Shown piece by piece: positions 42,326-63,197 of a stretch of 64,000 bases of DNA. The stretch's first letter is position 1. Every line of letters begins with the position of its first letter. The notes below the pieces were generated by a model, which worked only from the letters and a program-made list of their open reading frames with translations, made no database searches and had not been told where the DNA came from. The stretch is from Promethearchaeota archaeon (GTDB lineage Archaea; Asgardarchaeota; Lokiarchaeia; Sigyniarchaeales; SOKP01): positions 32,001-96,000 of the forward strand of contig JBHLOY010000010.1 in the NCBI GenBank assembly GCA_048939995.1, written 5' to 3'. The translations under genes and the position numbers were made by a program.

Positions 42326-42610
42326 TTGATTAATAGAAGTGAAGTCAAGGCTATAATACGCCGATTTGAGGAACGTGAAGGAATTCGGGGAGTCATTATC
42401 TGTGATTCAACAGGGTTGCCAATAGATTCAAATATGGATATTAATATGAGTGAAGAAGTAGCTGCTTACGTTACATCGCTAATTGGTAAGGGAAAGCAAG
42501 TGGTTGAAGCTTTAAATGAGGGTGCCTTAAAGTTTATAAGGCTCGAGACTTCTAAAGGGGAAACAATGATCGCTCTTGAATCTAATCTAATTTTGATCAT
42601 ATTGAAATAA
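42326..42610 (+). CDS. Roadblock/LC7 protein
   Basis: GIRGVIICDSTGLPIDS; resembles the dynein light chain roadblock pattern. Confidence 0.88.
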   Translation: MINRSEVKAIIRRFEEREGIRGVIICDSTGLPIDSNMDINMSEEVAAYVTSLIGKGKQVVEALNEGALKFIRLETSKGETMIALESNLILIILK

Positions 42611-42820: not shown

Positions 42821-43168
42821 ATGGATAAAAAAGCGATTGAGAAGAAATTAGCAGAATTAATGGACATTGTACCCGAATGCGAAGGATTGATTGCAGCAGA
42901 TACAAATGGTAAAGTTATTATTGGTCAAACTTTAACTGATATGGATCACGATCTTATCGCTAAAGCTTGTACTAATATAGTTAAAGATTCTAATTCATTA
43001 GGAAAAAATATTGGTAAGGGGAACTTAAAGACTACCACTATAGAACTTGATGACGGTTTTGCAGTTCTTGTAGGTTCTGATGCATTAATTTTAATTGCAT
43101 TAGCTGGGCTTGATGGCCGATCATCCCTAAGTCTTTTGAAAAGAAATCTGATTTCAATTTTAAATTAA
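42821..43168 (+). CDS. Roadblock/LC7 (MglB-like) protein
   Basis: EGLIAADTNGKVI...IELDDG. Confidence 0.85.
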   Translation: MDKKAIEKKLAELMDIVPECEGLIAADTNGKVIIGQTLTDMDHDLIAKACTNIVKDSNSLGKNIGKGNLKTTTIELDDGFAVLVGSDALILIALAGLDGRSSLSLLKRNLISILN

Positions 43169-47460: not shown

Positions 47461-48801
47461 ATGGCTATAGATCTAATTTTAAAGGAAATAGAAGAAAATA
47501 AAGACGAATTTATTGATTTTTTGCGAAAATTAGTGCAAACAGATTCTTATAATCCTCCAGGAAATGAAAAAAATGTTGCTTTAATAATTGAAAGTTATCT
47601 AAAAGAATCTGGAGTAAAAACCGAAATATTTCCATTTGGAGATAATAGAGCAAATTTGATAGCCTATTTAAATGATAATTTTAAAGGAAAGAACCTTCTT
47701 TATAATGGACATATGGATGTTGTACCTGCTGGGGATAAAGAAGAGTGGAAAAATCCTCCGCTTTCTGCCGTCATTAAGAGAAATAAATATATGTATGGAA
47801 GAGGTACTTCTGATATGAAGGGGGGTTTAGCTGCTATGACAATAGCATTAAAAATTCTAAAAAAAGTTAGTGATAATTATTCAGGAAACTTAATATTAAA
47901 TGCTGTTGCTGATGAGGAGACAGGAGGAGACTTAGGAACTAAATGGTGCTTAGATGAGAAGTTAAATGAGTTTAAAATCGATTTTGCAATTATTTCAGAA
48001 CCTTCTGGTCTTGATCCTTTACCCAAAGCGATTATACTTGGAGAAAAAGGGCGACTTGTGGTTAAAATAATAACTAACGGAATTGCAACTCACTCTGGCT
48101 GGCCTTTCATGGGAAAAAATGCTATACTTATGATGAATGAAATTATCACAAATCTTGATAAAATAGATAAATATGTAGTTAAAGTAGATCCTCCTATGCC
48201 ATTAAGTAAAATCAAGAAATTAGTAAGTAGAGCTTTCCCGAATGAAGAAATTTTTGAAAGAATTTTAGATGAACAACCATTACTTAAAAATGTACTAATA
48301 GCGTTAACACAATTTACTACAAGTGTTAATATTATCCATAGCGGTATAAAGGATAATGTAGTACCAGATAAATGTGAGGCTATAATAGACTTTCGTCTAT
48401 TACCAAACCAAGATCCGAACGATGTAATAAAATCATTGAAGAAGCTAATTGAGGATGAAATTGGCTATCCTATAAAGAAAAAAGTTAAAGATGTGTATGT
48501 TGATATTAAGATCTTACAGCAACATGCGGGTTCATATTGGAAAGATTGGGAGAAATCTTCAGTATTAAAAGAATTGCAAGAAATAATAGATAAGGTTTAT
48601 GGAAAAAAATCATTTTTTGTATTAATGCCCCAAAGTGCTGATTGCCACTATCTTCGTAATACTGGATCTTGTCCTCAGACAATAATTTTTGGTCCCGGAA
48701 GTGGTTCTAAAGTGCATTCTGCTAACGAATTCATTGAACTAGAAGATTTTCTAAATGCAATAAAAGTTTTCACATTATTTGCTTACAAATTTTTAACATA
48801 A
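47461..48801 (+). CDS. M20 metallopeptidase (ArgE/DapE family)
   Basis: NGHMDVVP, GRGTSDMKGG, DEE, HSANE. Confidence 0.93.
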   Translation: MAIDLILKEIEENKDEFIDFLRKLVQTDSYNPPGNEKNVALIIESYLKESGVKTEIFPFGDNRANLIAYLNDNFKGKNLLYNGHMDVVPAGDKEEWKNPPLSAVIKRNKYMYGRGTSDMKGGLAAMTIALKILKKVSDNYSGNLILNAVADEETGGDLGTKWCLDEKLNEFKIDFAIISEPSGLDPLPKAIILGEKGRLVVKIITNGIATHSGWPFMGKNAILMMNEIITNLDKIDKYVVKVDPPMPLSKIKKLVSRAFPNEEIFERILDEQPLLKNVLIALTQFTTSVNIIHSGIKDNVVPDKCEAIIDFRLLPNQDPNDVIKSLKKLIEDEIGYPIKKKVKDVYVDIKILQQHAGSYWKDWEKSSVLKELQEIIDKVYGKKSFFVLMPQSADCHYLRNTGSCPQTIIFGPGSGSKVHSANEFIELEDFLNAIKVFTLFAYKFLT

Positions 48802-48841
48802 AAAATTTTAATAAAACCATATGGATTGTTAGAAAACTAAA

Positions 48842-50020
48842 TTGAATGATTTCAAAATTGAAGATTCAATTATTTTGATTGATACTTCTAGATCGATGTT
48901 AAGAAGAGACTTTAAACCAAATCGATTAATTGCAGCCTTGAGTGCCGTAAAGGCTTTTATCCAATCAAAATTTGAAATTGACCCCAAAGATAGAATAGCA
49001 CTTGTATCCTTTGGAGAGAGTGCCAAAAAGTTATGTCCTATTACTTATGAAGAGGATAACCTATTTGAAGCTTTCAAGAAGATCCAAATTTCTGGTAAAG
49101 GGTTATTACATGAAGGTATAGCATTTTGTTTGCAACTGTTAGTTGAGGAAATGAGAAAAGTAGGAGGAAAAACCAACAGAATTTTTATAGTTTCAGATAA
49201 TAAGATTCTTTATACTGAAAAATTGCATAAAATTGTGGAGATTGCCAAAGGTTTAGGAATTTATATAGATTCCTGCCAATTAGGGCAATCTGAAGGATAT
49301 TCAGGAAGTATTCTTAAACAGATTGCTAAAAACACTGGAGGTCAATACGGTTTTTTTAATAATTCTAAAGCATTAATTAATGCCGGAAATTCATTTGCTT
49401 CAAAAAAAGAGTTTAAAGAGTCAATCGATTATTTTTCACCTATAAAAGATAAAAAAGAAACTCCATTAATGGGTGAAATTGCTTTGGATTTACGAAGGCC
49501 TAATCTCTTAGATATTCGTTTAATGATGAGTGATAATGACAAATTTGGTGAAAAGTGTCAGATCTGCCATTCTGTAAAATCACCTATTACTGATGCTGAT
49601 TTTTACTCTGAAGGAAGATATTGTCCTTCATGTGATCGCCCAATGCATTTATCATGTGCAGCAATGTGGGCAAAAAAAACTGAAAAGAAGGAGCGGATCT
49701 TTAGATGTCCCTTTTGCTTTTTTCTTTTAGAATTACCCTCTTCATTTTCAAAATTAATTGAAGATAAAGAAGAAAGTCTTCCTAAAGTAAGATTAGTTAA
49801 TGAAGGAGAAGAAAAAACAACAAAAATGATTGTCTTTCCCAATGAAAATATCCATGAAATTAATGAATCATGTTCCTATTGTCACAGCATATTTTTAGGA
49901 GAATATAAAGTTTATCAATGCGAAAAATGTGGAGCTTATTATCATGAACCTTGTTTAGAAAAAGTCACAAAGGAACTCAGGGGATGTAGGAACTGTGGCG
50001 CTCAAATTATTAACTATTAA
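48842..50020 (+). CDS. VWA domain + two RING-like zinc fingers (TFIIH p44/Ssl1- or Rpn10-like)
   Basis: IDTSRSMLRRDFKPNRL VWA start; CQIC...CPSC...HLSC...W...CPFC; CSYC...CEKC...HEPC...CRNC. Confidence 0.8.
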   Translation: MNDFKIEDSIILIDTSRSMLRRDFKPNRLIAALSAVKAFIQSKFEIDPKDRIALVSFGESAKKLCPITYEEDNLFEAFKKIQISGKGLLHEGIAFCLQLLVEEMRKVGGKTNRIFIVSDNKILYTEKLHKIVEIAKGLGIYIDSCQLGQSEGYSGSILKQIAKNTGGQYGFFNNSKALINAGNSFASKKEFKESIDYFSPIKDKKETPLMGEIALDLRRPNLLDIRLMMSDNDKFGEKCQICHSVKSPITDADFYSEGRYCPSCDRPMHLSCAAMWAKKTEKKERIFRCPFCFFLLELPSSFSKLIEDKEESLPKVRLVNEGEEKTTKMIVFPNENIHEINESCSYCHSIFLGEYKVYQCEKCGAYYHEPCLEKVTKELRGCRNCGAQIINY

Positions 50021-50101: not shown

Positions 50102-52191
50102 GTGATTAATTTAAGCAAAGCTCATAAACATAAGTGGATCATTACTAGTGCTTGGCCTTATGTGAACGCAAATATTTCTTGAGAGCTTTAAGAATTAGCG
50201 TACTTCCACATCTAGGCAACTTAATAGGAAGCACATTATCAGCAGATGTATTTGCTCGCTTTCTACGAATGAAGGGAGATGAAGTATTATTTGTATCTGG
50301 TTCAGATATGCATGGAACTCCCGTAGCAGTGGAAGCTAAAAAAACAGGTGTTTCAGTAGAAGAATTAGCTATAAAAAATCACAATAAAATTAAGGAATTG
50401 CATAAAAAATGGAAAATTTCATTTGATAATTACACTCAAACGCATAATCCTACACATATCGAATTTGTGCAGAAATTTTATTTAGATATCCAAAAAAACG
50501 GATATATCTTAGAAAAAGATATAGAATCCCTTTATTGTGAAAAAGATAACCTTTTTCTTCCTGATAGGTTTGTAGAGGGGATTTGCCCTCACTGTGGAGC
50601 TGAGAAAGCGAGAGGGGATCAATGTGACAATTGCCAGAAGTTATTGACACCTCTCGAGCTTAAAGAATCGTACTGTTCGATATGTGGCGCAAAACCTATA
50701 CTTCGAAAAACTAAACATTGGTATATGGATTTTCCTAGGCTTCAAAATCAATTGAAGAAATTAATTGAAAAAAATGAAATTATCCCTCAAAATGCTCGGC
50801 AAATGTGCTTAAACAGTATCGAGGAAGGTCTTCCTGAAAGAGCCATTACGCGAGATTTAGAATGGGGTATTCCCGCACCGTTTAAAGGAGCTGAAGGAAA
50901 AACGATATATGTATGGTTTGAGGCTGTGTTAGGTTATGTTAGTGCTTGTTTAGAATGGGCTGACAAGCTAAAAAATCAACCAAAAAAATTTGATTACTTT
51001 TGGAAAGATAAAAATACCAAATCGGTTTATTTTATAGGGAAGGATAATATCATCTTCCATTTAATTGTGTTTCCAGGACTCCTAATGGCATATAATGCCG
51101 ATAAAAAGGATTCTGATAAATTAGTTCTTCCATATAACGTCTCTTCTACAGAATGGTTAATGCATGAAAATGAGAAATTTTCAAAATCTAGAGGAATAGG
51201 GATTTGGATTGATGAGGCGTTAGACCTGGCACCATTGGATTATTGGAGATTCAATTTAGTTTATAATCGTCCGGAATCAAGTGATACCTCATTTTTATGG
51301 TCTGAATTTGAAAATAACATTAAGACTTTAAATGATAACATAGGAAATTTCATTCATAGGACATTAACCTTTATTGATAAACAATTCAATAAGATCATTC
51401 CAGAGAAAGTTGAATATGACAAAGTAGATAAGATTTTTGTTGAAAAAATCAATAGAATAGGCGTTGATGTCGGAAAAAGCTTAGATAATTTTAGTTTACG
51501 TAAGGCAATACGAGATGTTGTGAGTTTTGGAAAAGAAGGAAATGTTTATTTAAACGAAAAGGCACCATGGCATTTAATAAAGAAAGATAAAAAAAAAGCG
51601 GGACATGTATTTAATATATGCGCTCAAGCGGTATATGCTTTGGCAGTTCTTTTAAGCCCATTTACTCCTGGGACAGCAAACAAAATTATTTCATTTTTGA
51701 ATGATCCTAAATTATCCGAATCATCTTGGGATAGTATTAATGAAAATGCTGTCAGTGCAGGAGTTAAAATTAAAAGTCCAGAGCCAATTTTTCAAAAATT
51801 AGATATTGAAGAAATAAAGAATAATTTAAATAAAATCAGAGAAGAAAAGCAAAAGGGAGGAAAAATTGAATTGATATCTTATGATTATTTTAAAAAGTTG
51901 GATATTAGAGTCGCAAAAATAGAATCTATTGAGAAGGTACCTAAAGCAGATAAACTATATAAATTAGGAATCGATATTGGGAATGAGAAAAGGACACTCG
52001 TAGCAGGTTTAGCGGAACACTATAAAATAGATGAGCTAATTAATAAAAAAATTATAGTGCTAACAAACTTAGAGCCAAGAAAATTACGAGGAATTCAAAG
52101 TGAAGGAATGCTGCTTGCTGCTGTGGATAATGAAAAGGTATCTATTTTAATACCAGACAAAGAAATTGAGATCGGGGCAAAAGTAGAATAA
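50102..52191 (+). CDS. metG: Methionyl-tRNA synthetase, two exons: 50102-50171 and 50204-52191 (685 aa after splicing)
   Basis: Exon 1 gives [23 protein letters not shown]; exon 2 gives (I)PHLGNLIGS, Zn knuckles, KFSKS and a C-terminal Trbp111-like domain. Confidence 0.95.
50172..50203 (+). other. 32-nt bulge-helix-bulge (tRNA-endonuclease-type) intron in metG mRNA
   Basis: Central 4-bp helix ACGC(50166-69)/GCGT(50198-201), 3-nt bulges AAA and ACT, flanking helices on both sides. Standard cut sites restore the reading frame. Confidence 0.88.
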
Positions 52192-52193
52192 AT

Positions 52194-53438
52194 CTATAAT
52201 TTTAAAGAAAATACTGGATTTAAGCGGGCTATAACTTCTCCTAGATCTAGTTGTAGCATTTTTAAGATTACGTCTCTTCCTCGATATTCAAATTGTAATT
52301 CTTTAACATTCTTAATTATTTTTAATTTATTACGATCTTTTACTAACTCACACACAAAATATCTCTGGTCATTGTATTCCAATATTTTTTTCACATTTTG
52401 AATATCTGGCAAATTATAGCCTCCTCCATGTGCTAAAATATCTACATTTCTCAATAATTCCAATAATTCCAATTTTACCGCTCTTTTTAAAAAATTATTA
52501 TTTTTTAAGGTTATCTCTGAAAGATTTTTCTGTCCCATAAATAGATAACAAGCCATATCTGCTCTAAGAGCGGTAGGAAAAACATTGGAGGTGATATACT
52601 TACAATTGAGATCAGTACAATTACTCCCTAAATACATATTATTATAATCTTTTAAAAACTGGTGTGGTTGATTGCAAATTATTTGAAAATCATTACCAAA
52701 TAGATGATTTGCAATGAGTAATCTTTTTCTGCTTGAAAAATTCAGAGCTTTTTTATTAAAATCTAAGTACTCATCAGCCTCAGAATCAATAAGGATATAT
52801 TGTTTTCCAAAAATGGTATTCTCTTCTAATGCATGTTCTTTTAATGTTTTAGATTGATCAATATACAAACCAATTCCATGTTTATCATCTCTGAATTCTG
52901 GAGCAGAACCATGTATAAAAAAAGTATATGGTGGAAAATCAATATCAGTTAGATTTTTAGTTTTAAAACAATTAATGAAATGGTTTGAGATCCCATAGTC
53001 CCAATTAATTAGAATGTCTTTATAATATAATTCTGTGGATTTTATTTCATCAATCTTCTTAATAAGATCATAGGGGTCTGGTAGTTCATATAATCCTCCA
53101 CATAATATACCACAACAATTAGGTTTTATATTTAGAAAAATTAATTTTTCATTTCCAGATCCCCAATTTAATCTACCGCCATATCCGAGACCAGAATTCC
53201 ATCTGAAATTATTTTTTGATATTGTTTCATCTGGAGAGGAGATAAATGCTGCTTTAGGTTCAAACCCATATTTTTCTTGAATAAGTTGAAATTGAGCAAG
53301 TCCATACTTCATATTAGCTCTACATAGTTTTGAAGCGCCATCATTTAAACCAGTTGAAAAAATAAACTTTTCTGCTCTACTTAGTAACTCAACTTTATCC
53401 ATTTGAGATAAATTCTCAGAAATACTAGAGGTCGCCAT
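52194..53438 (-). CDS. Divergent RtcB-family RNA ligase
   Basis: Ordered motifs PD...G..GG, NCCG, SNHF, HGS, HQ, HGGG and C-terminal EVIARLNPVFSLK match the RtcB order PDxH, DINCG, GNHF, HSGS, HN, HGAG, V..L.P....K. Confidence 0.75.
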   Translation of the reverse strand: MATSSISENLSQMDKVELLSRAEKFIFSTGLNDGASKLCRANMKYGLAQFQLIQEKYGFEPKAAFISSPDETISKNNFRWNSGLGYGGRLNWGSGNEKLIFLNIKPNCCGILCGGLYELPDPYDLIKKIDEIKSTELYYKDILINWDYGISNHFINCFKTKNLTDIDFPPYTFFIHGSAPEFRDDKHGIGLYIDQSKTLKEHALEENTIFGKQYILIDSEADEYLDFNKKALNFSSRKRLLIANHLFGNDFQIICNQPHQFLKDYNNMYLGSNCTDLNCKYITSNVFPTALRADMACYLFMGQKNLSEITLKNNNFLKRAVKLELLELLRNVDILAHGGGYNLPDIQNVKKILEYNDQRYFVCELVKDRNKLKIIKNVKELQFEYRGRDVILKMLQLDLGEVIARLNPVFSLKL

Positions 53439-62815: not shown

Positions 62816-62912
62816 GCTTTAATTTTCAAATCAAGTATTGGACTAAAGATCATTTTAGTATAATTTAATCTTCATTCTCATATCTATAATATAATAAAAA
62901 AAAGTTCTTAAT

Positions 62913-63197
62913 ATGATGAATTTTTGTCCCTATTGCGGTTCTCAACTAAATAAAGAAAGAAAAGGTAAGCTTAATTTTTGCCCGTATTGTGGAGAACAAT
63001 TAACCCCTCATCTTAAAGAATTTAAATGCACAATCTGCCACCAAAAAATAAAACATAATCAAACATCTATAAATTGCGCATATTGTGAAAGTCCATATCA
63101 TTATAATTGCGTGGTTAACTGGTTATCAACCTATAATTCTTGTCCCACGTGTCAAAACACCTTTCTTAATCCTTACTTAAAGATTCATAAAAATTAA
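62913..63197 (+). CDS. Zinc-ribbon + RING-finger protein (candidate E3 ligase)
   Basis: CPYCG x2; CTIC...CAYC...HYNC...W......CPTC. Confidence 0.8.
   Translation: MMNFCPYCGSQLNKERKGKLNFCPYCGEQLTPHLKEFKCTICHQKIKHNQTSINCAYCESPYHYNCVVNWLSTYNSCPTCQNTFLNPYLKIHKN

Follow-up and report, generated by a model that had tools for sequence, protein, structure and literature searches.

To our knowledge, and in the literature searched, the TFIIH core subunits p44 (GTF2H2; Ssl1 in yeast) and p34 have no described relative in prokaryotes. The candidate examined here is the protein encoded at positions 48842 to 50020 of a 64,000-nucleotide stretch of contig JBHLOY010000010.1 from a Promethearchaeota archaeon (the whole stretch is referred to below as the window); it combines a VWA domain with two RING-like zinc fingers. 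In p44, the RING is reported to be a protein-protein clamp on the VWA domain of p34 (PMC5737387). VWA and RING domains also share one polypeptide in the plant E3 ligases RGLG and WAV3 (PMC12846806 and PMC11047095). Archaeal cascades of E1, E2, and RING E3 have been found to function in vitro (10.1101/2023.07.25.550441; PMC5654768), and C4HC3 has been described as the usual configuration of prokaryotic RINGs (PMC11354881).

The family represented by this protein has a p44-like domain order, composed of a prokaryotic VWA_2 domain and two C4HC3 RINGs of prokaryotic type. No description of such a VWA-RING-RING family was found in the literature searched, which left out the key prokaryotic-RING paper from the Aravind laboratory. 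Its most likely role, put forward here tentatively, is that of a soluble modular adaptor serving as a RING-type subunit of a ubiquitin or ubiquitin-like protein (Ubl) ligase in the Lokiarchaeial E1/E2/Ub/JAB system.

Domain architecture and conservation

Translation is assigned to a TTG codon, the earliest start codon downstream of an in-frame TAG at 48830 to 48832. This start is taken as right because homologues of 390 to 395 amino acids align from residue 1. The product, referred to as paralogue A, consists of the following parts.

48842-50020, plus strand: whole gene, 392 amino acids with a TTG start; VWA domain, conserved linker, finger 1, variable linker, and finger 2
48857-49411, plus strand: VWA domain, about residues 6 to 190
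48881-48895, plus strand: D14-x-S16-x-S18 of the metal ion-dependent adhesion site (MIDAS) type, invariant; D119 is also invariant, and an invariant G87 occupies the MIDAS Thr position
49397-49528, plus strand: conserved linker, residues 186 to 229, FASKK...DYFSP...PL..IAL.LRRP..LDIRLMM
49556-49717, plus strand: finger 1, residues 239 to 292, a C4HC3 cross-brace RING with I241, W276, and P290
49739-49846, plus strand: variable, probably flexible linker, residues 300 to 335, poorly conserved; the predicted local distance difference test (pLDDT) score is below 50 at residues 309 to 322
49871-49996, plus strand: finger 2, residues 344 to 385, C4HC3, without the W and P residues and ending in C-R-N-C

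Conservation was assessed in 68 homologues and in a second set of 34 sequences, which comprises paralogues A and B and more distant relatives (30% mean column identity). The former show no variation in any of the 16 Zn ligands, D14, S16, S18, W276, or P290; in the latter, the ligands, W276, and P290 are still invariant, and I241 is at least 90% conserved. The linker at residues 186 to 229, many columns of which are invariant or nearly so in the 68-homologue alignment, is partly helical in the predicted model, with a dip in pLDDT at residues 205 to 209, and its first helix can still be aligned to stand-alone VWA proteins. Two antisense open reading frames (ORFs) overlapping the gene, 48829-49026 and 49603-49842, code for only 65 and 79 amino acids, respectively, and are taken as chance frames within a conserved gene. 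The gene thus encodes a real, strongly constrained protein of three folded modules joined by linkers, and every feature listed in the first-pass annotation, which described a VWA domain followed by two RING-like fingers, is present. Searches with PADLOC assign it to no defence system, and no NCBIfam model is specific for it, all matches being far under the cutoffs.

The two zinc fingers

The ligands of finger 1 are arranged as C239-x2-C242-x18-C261-x2-C264-x4-H269-x2-C272-x16-C289-x2-C292, which bears out the C4HC3 finger with a Trp and a CP.C motif that had been proposed for the middle of the protein. W276 lies four residues past ligand 6, P290 directly follows ligand 7 (C289-P290-x-C292), and I241 comes after ligand 1. 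RING E3s classically dock E2 enzymes through Ile, Trp, and Pro at such positions. Judged from its sequence and predicted model, finger 1 is an eight-ligand cross-brace RING with Ile, Trp, and Pro of the E2-docking type.

Finger 2 has the arrangement C344-x2-C347-x12-C360-x2-C363-x4-H368-x2-C371-x10-C382-x2-C385. The first-pass annotation likened its spacing to that of the p44 RING, with His replacing one Cys. In the HMMER alignment to human p44, finger 2 pairs with residues 351 to 389; the x2/x4/x2/x10/x2 spacing is shared over the last six ligands, and H368 faces a Cys. The Pfam family C1_4 (PF07975), named in the first-pass annotation as a check, matches none of the 68 family members at E of ≤0.001 and nothing in the whole genome at E of ≤1.

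When the finger region is folded alone, its pLDDT is 85, and each finger exceeds 90. A structural search against 48,161 structures separates the two fingers, with RING superpositions at root mean square deviations (rmsd) of 1.6 to 2.4 Å. The top matches of finger 1 are E3 RINGs; it superposes on Listerin and on the RING of FANCL as solved in complex with an E2 (rmsd, 1.9 Å; 26% identity), and no p44 chain is among its listed matches. The best match of finger 2 is the p44 RING, with equal spacing of the last six ligands. Foldseek comparison of the finger region alone gives nothing at E of ≤0.001; short of this threshold, the best entries are RING-H2 E3s, and alignments to p44/Ssl1 that span both fingers appear at E of 0.02 to 0.07.

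Across the family, the finger models matched most often at E of ≤0.001 are C1_1 (63/68) and PHD (42/68). Prok-RING_1 (PF14446; cutoff, 29.1 bits) matches 30 of the 68 members at the same E value, with finger 2 of paralogue A scoring 22.1 bits and finger 2 of paralogue B passing at 33.4 bits. These scores place finger 2 in relation to, yet at the edge of, the Prok-RING_1 family, and this C4HC3 finger appears to be of the Prok-RING_1/C1-like/p44-RING type.

Six fingers encoded in the genome can be aligned with all eight ligands in register, and they form two classes. Class I, in which a Trp sits at +4 from ligand 6 and a Pro directly follows ligand 7, unites finger 1 of both paralogues with a stand-alone RING of 99 amino acids (62898-63194). 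Class II, which lacks this Trp and Pro and ends in C-[KR]-N-C, includes finger 2 of both paralogues and the C terminus of a protein of 368 amino acids encoded on contig C23.

The stand-alone protein at 62898-63194 (plus strand) is a C4HC3 RING with the Trp(+4) and C-P-x-C features and could serve the archaeal ubiquitin system as a small RING E3. The 368-residue protein (G000:C23:88630-89733; L013:553-1659) has its class II finger at the C terminus, and nothing in Pfam matches the N-terminal part.

Affinities of the VWA domain

In the N-terminal motif of the VWA domain, IDTSRSMLRRDFKPNRL (IDTSRSM...DFKPNRL), residues D14, S16, S18, M19, D23, P26, and R28 are invariant in the 68 homologues. This D.S..M...D..P.R pattern had been taken for a signature of Ssl1 and Rpn10; the pattern is there, but it is not specific to them, being shared with the closest stand-alone VWA proteins of prokaryotes (consensus, DxSxSMxxxDYxPxR). 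The Pfam Ssl1 model (PF04056), suggested as a check, passes its cutoff of 27 bits with a score of 34.8, although VWA_2 scores higher (64 bits; the VWA model scores 36). The Ssl1 model matches 68 of 68 family members at E of ≤0.001 (best, 6.5e-12); of the 26 generic VWA proteins compared, 8 also give a hit to it.

A search of all PDB sequences with the family profile retrieves Schizosaccharomyces pombe Rpn10 (1.9e-10), human p44 (1.1e-9), and human PSMD4 (1.3e-9), so that Rpn10 and p44 are equal in sequence match; the best bacterial VWA structures are 4rck (7.9e-6) and BatB (0.012). Rpn10/PSMD4 structures reach a Foldseek TMt of 0.75 to 0.81. Comparison of the VWA domain gives Z values of 25.1 for yeast Ssl1, 23.8 to 24.8 for human p44, 22.1 to 23.6 for Rpn10, 21.8 to 23.1 for bacterial VWAs, and 21.0 for p34, which puts p44/Ssl1 first among characterised proteins, though by only 1 to 3 Z units.

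Stand-alone prokaryotic VWA proteins score 60 to 80 bits in a library of 1.84 billion proteins, and the best 150 library matches are exclusively Asgard relatives or generic VWA proteins. In an hhalign comparison, the VWA domain aligns with 26 stand-alone prokaryotic VWAs with a probability of 99.95% and E of 1.3e-37 (28% identity over 195 columns), which leans toward one part of the counter-case raised in the first-pass annotation, a grouping of the domain with generic prokaryotic VWAs. These 26 proteins come from diverse, unrelated taxa, Thermoplasmatota and Patescibacteria among those named. Proteins of this VWA_2/BatA type share the DxSxSM...D[FY].P.R..A.K and K..ID..DR motifs with the family but have no fingers, except for P0222, which has a single Prok-RING_1 finger. 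They also retain the MIDAS Thr (at least 90%), whereas the Lokiarchaeial family has an invariant Gly (G87) in its place; p44 aligns a Gly to this position, and Rpn10 an Ala. The Ssl1 model matches and the loss of the MIDAS Thr suggest, but do not prove, a particular connection with the eukaryotic proteins. An aerotolerance VWA of the BatA type finds no support: the protein has no BatA_N match, it scores 25.7 bits with the NCBIfam BatA model (cutoff, 380), and its MIDAS Thr is replaced by Gly.

Two of the closest VWA-only relatives, among them P0211 from a Thermoplasmatota metagenome-assembled genome (MAG), contain an N-terminal CDC48_2 domain before the VWA domain. A link of this type of VWA to Cdc48-type machinery is possible.

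Comparison with p44 and TFIIH

In Foldseek searches with the whole protein, full-length p44/Ssl1 chains occupy ranks 1 to 18 (E of 1.3e-15 to 2.5e-11; approximately 390 to 417 aligned columns), and VWA-only entries appear at about 1e-10 to 1e-11, indicating that the fingers add signal. In language-model features, eukaryotic p44 clusters come nearest among the named non-Asgard ones (0.91 and 0.90) and make up 14 of 30 listed hits, with Tfb4 at 0.81. Paralogue B gives p44 at 0.90 and no Tfb4. An assignment of A to p44 and B to p34 was therefore dropped, as the nearest eukaryotic clusters of B are again p44 and the pair does not mirror p44/p34. The Tfb4/p34 model has only sub-cutoff matches in the genome, on the two paralogues (20 to 23 bits). 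XPD is represented by one gene (G000:C11); Tfb2/p52 and BSD/p62 were not found in the genome, in searches that had no positive control (the prokaryotic control genomes were matchless as well).

The protein resembles p44/Ssl1, its nearest characterised relative, in the types and order of its domains and perhaps in its terminal RING. However, the identity is only 15 to 21%, the middle module of p44/Ssl1 is a C4 ribbon rather than a full C4HC3 RING with E2-type residues, and the DxSxS motif, intact in the Lokiarchaeial protein, is degenerate in p44. The first-pass annotation had suggested a p44 precursor or a ubiquitin-system E3 or receptor, which is partly supported, but common descent with p44 is not demonstrated. 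Descent of both from a common VWA-RING ancestor is possible.

Phyletic distribution and paralogues

More than 400 clusters (90% identity) of approximately 390 amino acids match paralogue A. The 120 best clusters listed are 60 to 99% identical to it, and those that are named are "VWA domain-containing protein" entries from Asgard MAGs. In a sample of 301 genomes from across the phylum, the family profile (E of ≤1e-10) matches 77, including 68/68 genomes of lineage f1, 7/7 of f2 (same order), and 1/1 of f4 (same class); it matches 0/1 of f3 (same class) and 0/223 sampled genomes of other classes. Counted by class, 76 of 77 sampled genomes of the window's own class carry the family. The Pfam Ssl1 model exceeds its cutoff in 75 of the 301 genomes, all in f1, f2, and f4. 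Judging from these profile matches, the family appears to be restricted, within the sample, to a single class, Lokiarchaeia in the usual naming; one f4-type sequence is labelled Helarchaeota by NCBI.

Most genomes that carry the family have two copies. Paralogue B of this genome (G000:C3:96133-97305, minus strand; L005:850-2046) has 399 amino acids, the same architecture, and 32% identity over its full length. In a maximum-likelihood tree, clades A and B each hold f1 and f2 sequences (SH-aLRT, 95 to 99), which places the A/B duplication before the f1/f2 split. One f2 genome, complete on a single contig, has proteins from clades A and B alike. A third subfamily, found here as a tandem pair (G000:C7:97462-98679 and 98799-100145), forms its own clade and has a degenerate VWA domain without MIDAS, a C4HC3 RING similar to finger 1 ("...FRCPRC"), and a different C terminus. 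P0222 falls in the VWA-only clade and yet bears its Prok-RING_1 finger, suggesting that VWA-RING fusions arise more than once.

Library proteins related to the third subfamily often have a zinc ribbon at the C terminus. The f4/"Helarchaeota" proteins L056 (G294:C21) and P0154 (686 to 693 amino acids) consist of the VWA domain, finger 1, and a long extra C-terminal region that replaces finger 2.

Genomic context

Paralogue A lies between the following genes.

47461-48801, plus strand: upstream neighbour, M20-family peptidase; adjacency kept in 5 of 7 f1 paralogue A loci compared
50152-52191, plus strand: downstream neighbour, methionyl-tRNA synthetase (metG); adjacent or one gene off in 7 of 7 f1 paralogue A loci and in 1 of 2 f2 genomes

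The remaining two f1 loci have another gene in place of the peptidase and one gene inserted before metG. The metG adjacency is probably plain synteny, and a functional tie of paralogue A to either neighbour was rejected because only gene order among close relatives is conserved. The match of the metG ORF to the Pfam tRNA-synt_1g profile starts at position 14 of the profile, so that the N terminus of MetG is missing from this frame. Beside it, a gene for 414 amino acids (52194-53438, minus strand) is conserved in 7 loci and has no family match; an RtcB-like identity, considered on the basis of a faint 15-bit match, was discarded, as a PDB sequence search gave no support.

Two Roadblock/LC7 genes (42326-42610 and 42821-43168, plus strand) are located approximately 6 kb upstream of paralogue A and are conserved in f1; the former also matches LAMTOR5 (28.8 bits). 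Between them and paralogue A, the opposite strand encodes a CARDB-containing surface protein of 1,358 amino acids. Paralogue B is divergently paired with a gene for a 402-residue GTPase of the Gtr1/RagA family (L043:10833-12041, plus strand) in 9 of 10 loci, including f2, and an Arf-family GTPase is encoded 7 kb from it.

Possible functions

The genome encodes a ubiquitin system. Its cluster L074 (G000:C23:184000-200000) carries, on one strand, genes for a Ubl (108 amino acids), a ThiF-type E1 (410 amino acids), an E2 (175 amino acids), and a JAB protein (276 amino acids), together with two more Ub-like genes; the genome as a whole has five Ub-like genes and a further E2, on contig C17. Neither a Pfam scan of ten ORFs nor a genome-wide pattern search revealed a RING protein in this cluster. 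If paralogue A acts as a ligase subunit, finger 1 would recruit the charged E2, the VWA face (DxSxS...D) would hold a substrate or partner protein, and finger 2 might mediate self-association or association with the other paralogue, by analogy with the clamp that the p44 RING forms on the VWA domain of p34. Finger 1 resembles C4HC3 RING E3s (FANCL, Listerin/Ltn1, and NSE1) and archaeal small RING E3s, and it shares its ligand pattern, Trp, and CP.C motif with the small RING at 62898-63194. It differs from RING E3s in its position behind a VWA domain and before a second finger and in lacking the linchpin Arg, and its ligase activity is putative. The plant enzymes RGLG and WAV3 have a copine-type VWA domain or an N-terminal RING and only a single RING; they probably represent independent fusions, and no specific sequence or structure match to them was seen in the comparisons made.

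The modules and their conservation are observed, whereas the steps of the mechanism are inferred, and several observations weigh against the ligase assignment. E2 genes are carried by nearly every genome of the class (89 of 91), which fits an E3 role but makes co-occurrence with the family nondiscriminating. Paralogue A shows no linkage to the ubiquitin cluster, lying between the M20 peptidase gene and metG, and several other RING proteins of the genome could serve as E3s. No RING-specific Pfam model reaches its cutoff on the protein (zf-RING_2, 17.5 bits; PHD, 19.8; Prok-RING_1, 22.1), and, as read from the sequence, finger 1 has no Arg/Lys "linchpin" past its last ligand.

In a different reading, the protein is a noncatalytic scaffold whose PHD/C1-like fingers bind protein, lipid, or chromatin and whose VWA domain is an adaptor, perhaps in small-GTPase signalling of the Rag/Roadblock type. 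Such signalling is abundant in Asgard archaea, and genes of this kind are found near both paralogues, namely, the Gtr1/RagA-family GTPase gene beside paralogue B (9 of 10 loci) and the two Roadblock/LC7 genes some 6 kb before paralogue A; however, the GTPase pairing belongs to paralogue B, and the Roadblock genes are not adjacent to paralogue A. The PHD and C1_1 models are the commonest finger matches in the family, but they remain under the Pfam cutoffs on paralogue A itself, the top structural matches of its finger 1 are E3 RINGs and not PHD fingers, and the Ile/Trp/Pro trio is kept across subfamilies. Even with the precedent of the p44 RING, reported to be a protein-protein clamp (PMC5737387), we regard a scaffold role as rather unlikely. 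It is doubtful to a somewhat greater degree that the protein is the true functional counterpart and evolutionary precursor of p44/Ssl1, with a VWA domain that binds and stimulates archaeal XPD and with fingers that form a TFIIH-like core together with the paralogue. The p44/Ssl1 chains in Foldseek ranks 1 to 18, the p44 RING as the best match of finger 2 with its similar ligand spacing, the Ssl1 matches in 68 of 68 members, the p44 clusters nearest in language-model features, the absence of the MIDAS Thr as in p44 and Rpn10, and the presence of one XPD gene and a second paralogue are all consistent with such a role. Yet the VWA domain is far nearer to stand-alone prokaryotic VWAs (E of 1.3e-37), and its p44 match leads Rpn10 and bacterial VWAs by only 1 to 3 Z units; C1_4 is matched by 0 of 68 members and nowhere in the genome, and the middle module is an eight-ligand RING rather than a C4 ribbon. 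In addition, Tfb2/p52 and BSD/p62 were not found in the genome, both paralogues are p44-like and neither is p34-like, and the gene is unlinked to XPD. The family was found in one Asgard class only, whereas XPD-type helicases are also found outside it (Haloferax, Sulfolobus, and Methanosarcina controls), and the case of P0222 suggests that VWA-RING fusions arose repeatedly.

An Rpn10-like receptor, delivering modified proteins to the proteasome/PAN or Cdc48 machinery on which its VWA domain docks, would agree with the CDC48_2 domain of a close VWA-only relative. However, Rpn10 has ubiquitin-interacting motifs (UIMs) and no zinc fingers, and the Lokiarchaeial protein has two fingers and neither a UIM (no match at E of ≤1) nor any other ubiquitin-binding motif detected; whole-protein comparisons prefer p44, and we know of no archaeal 19S lid, the structure on which Rpn10 docks. 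Such a receptor is highly improbable. The ligase-subunit assignment thus remains the one that we favour, with the reservations listed above.

Implications

By its domain order, best structural matches, and possibly p44-like terminal RING, the family is the nearest candidate so far for a prokaryotic relative of p44/p34. It is an improbable proposition that the Lokiarchaeial VWA-RING-RING proteins, TFIIH p44 (perhaps also p34), and the Rpn10 VWAs all derive from one archaeal VWA-RING ancestor. If so, the family would be a previously unlisted eukaryotic signature protein, and the TFIIH core scaffold would have begun as a ubiquitin ligase adaptor whose C-terminal RING clamped a partner VWA domain. 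A phylogeny that joined the family to p44, p34, and Rpn10 would add a transcription/repair scaffold, with an origin tied to the ubiquitin system, to the Asgard-derived parts of the eukaryotic cell. On the more modest reading, the protein would be a candidate multidomain RING E3 with no described archaeal parallel in the literature searched, and the Asgard ubiquitin system would gain a candidate substrate recognition module amenable to tests in cultured Lokiarchaeia.
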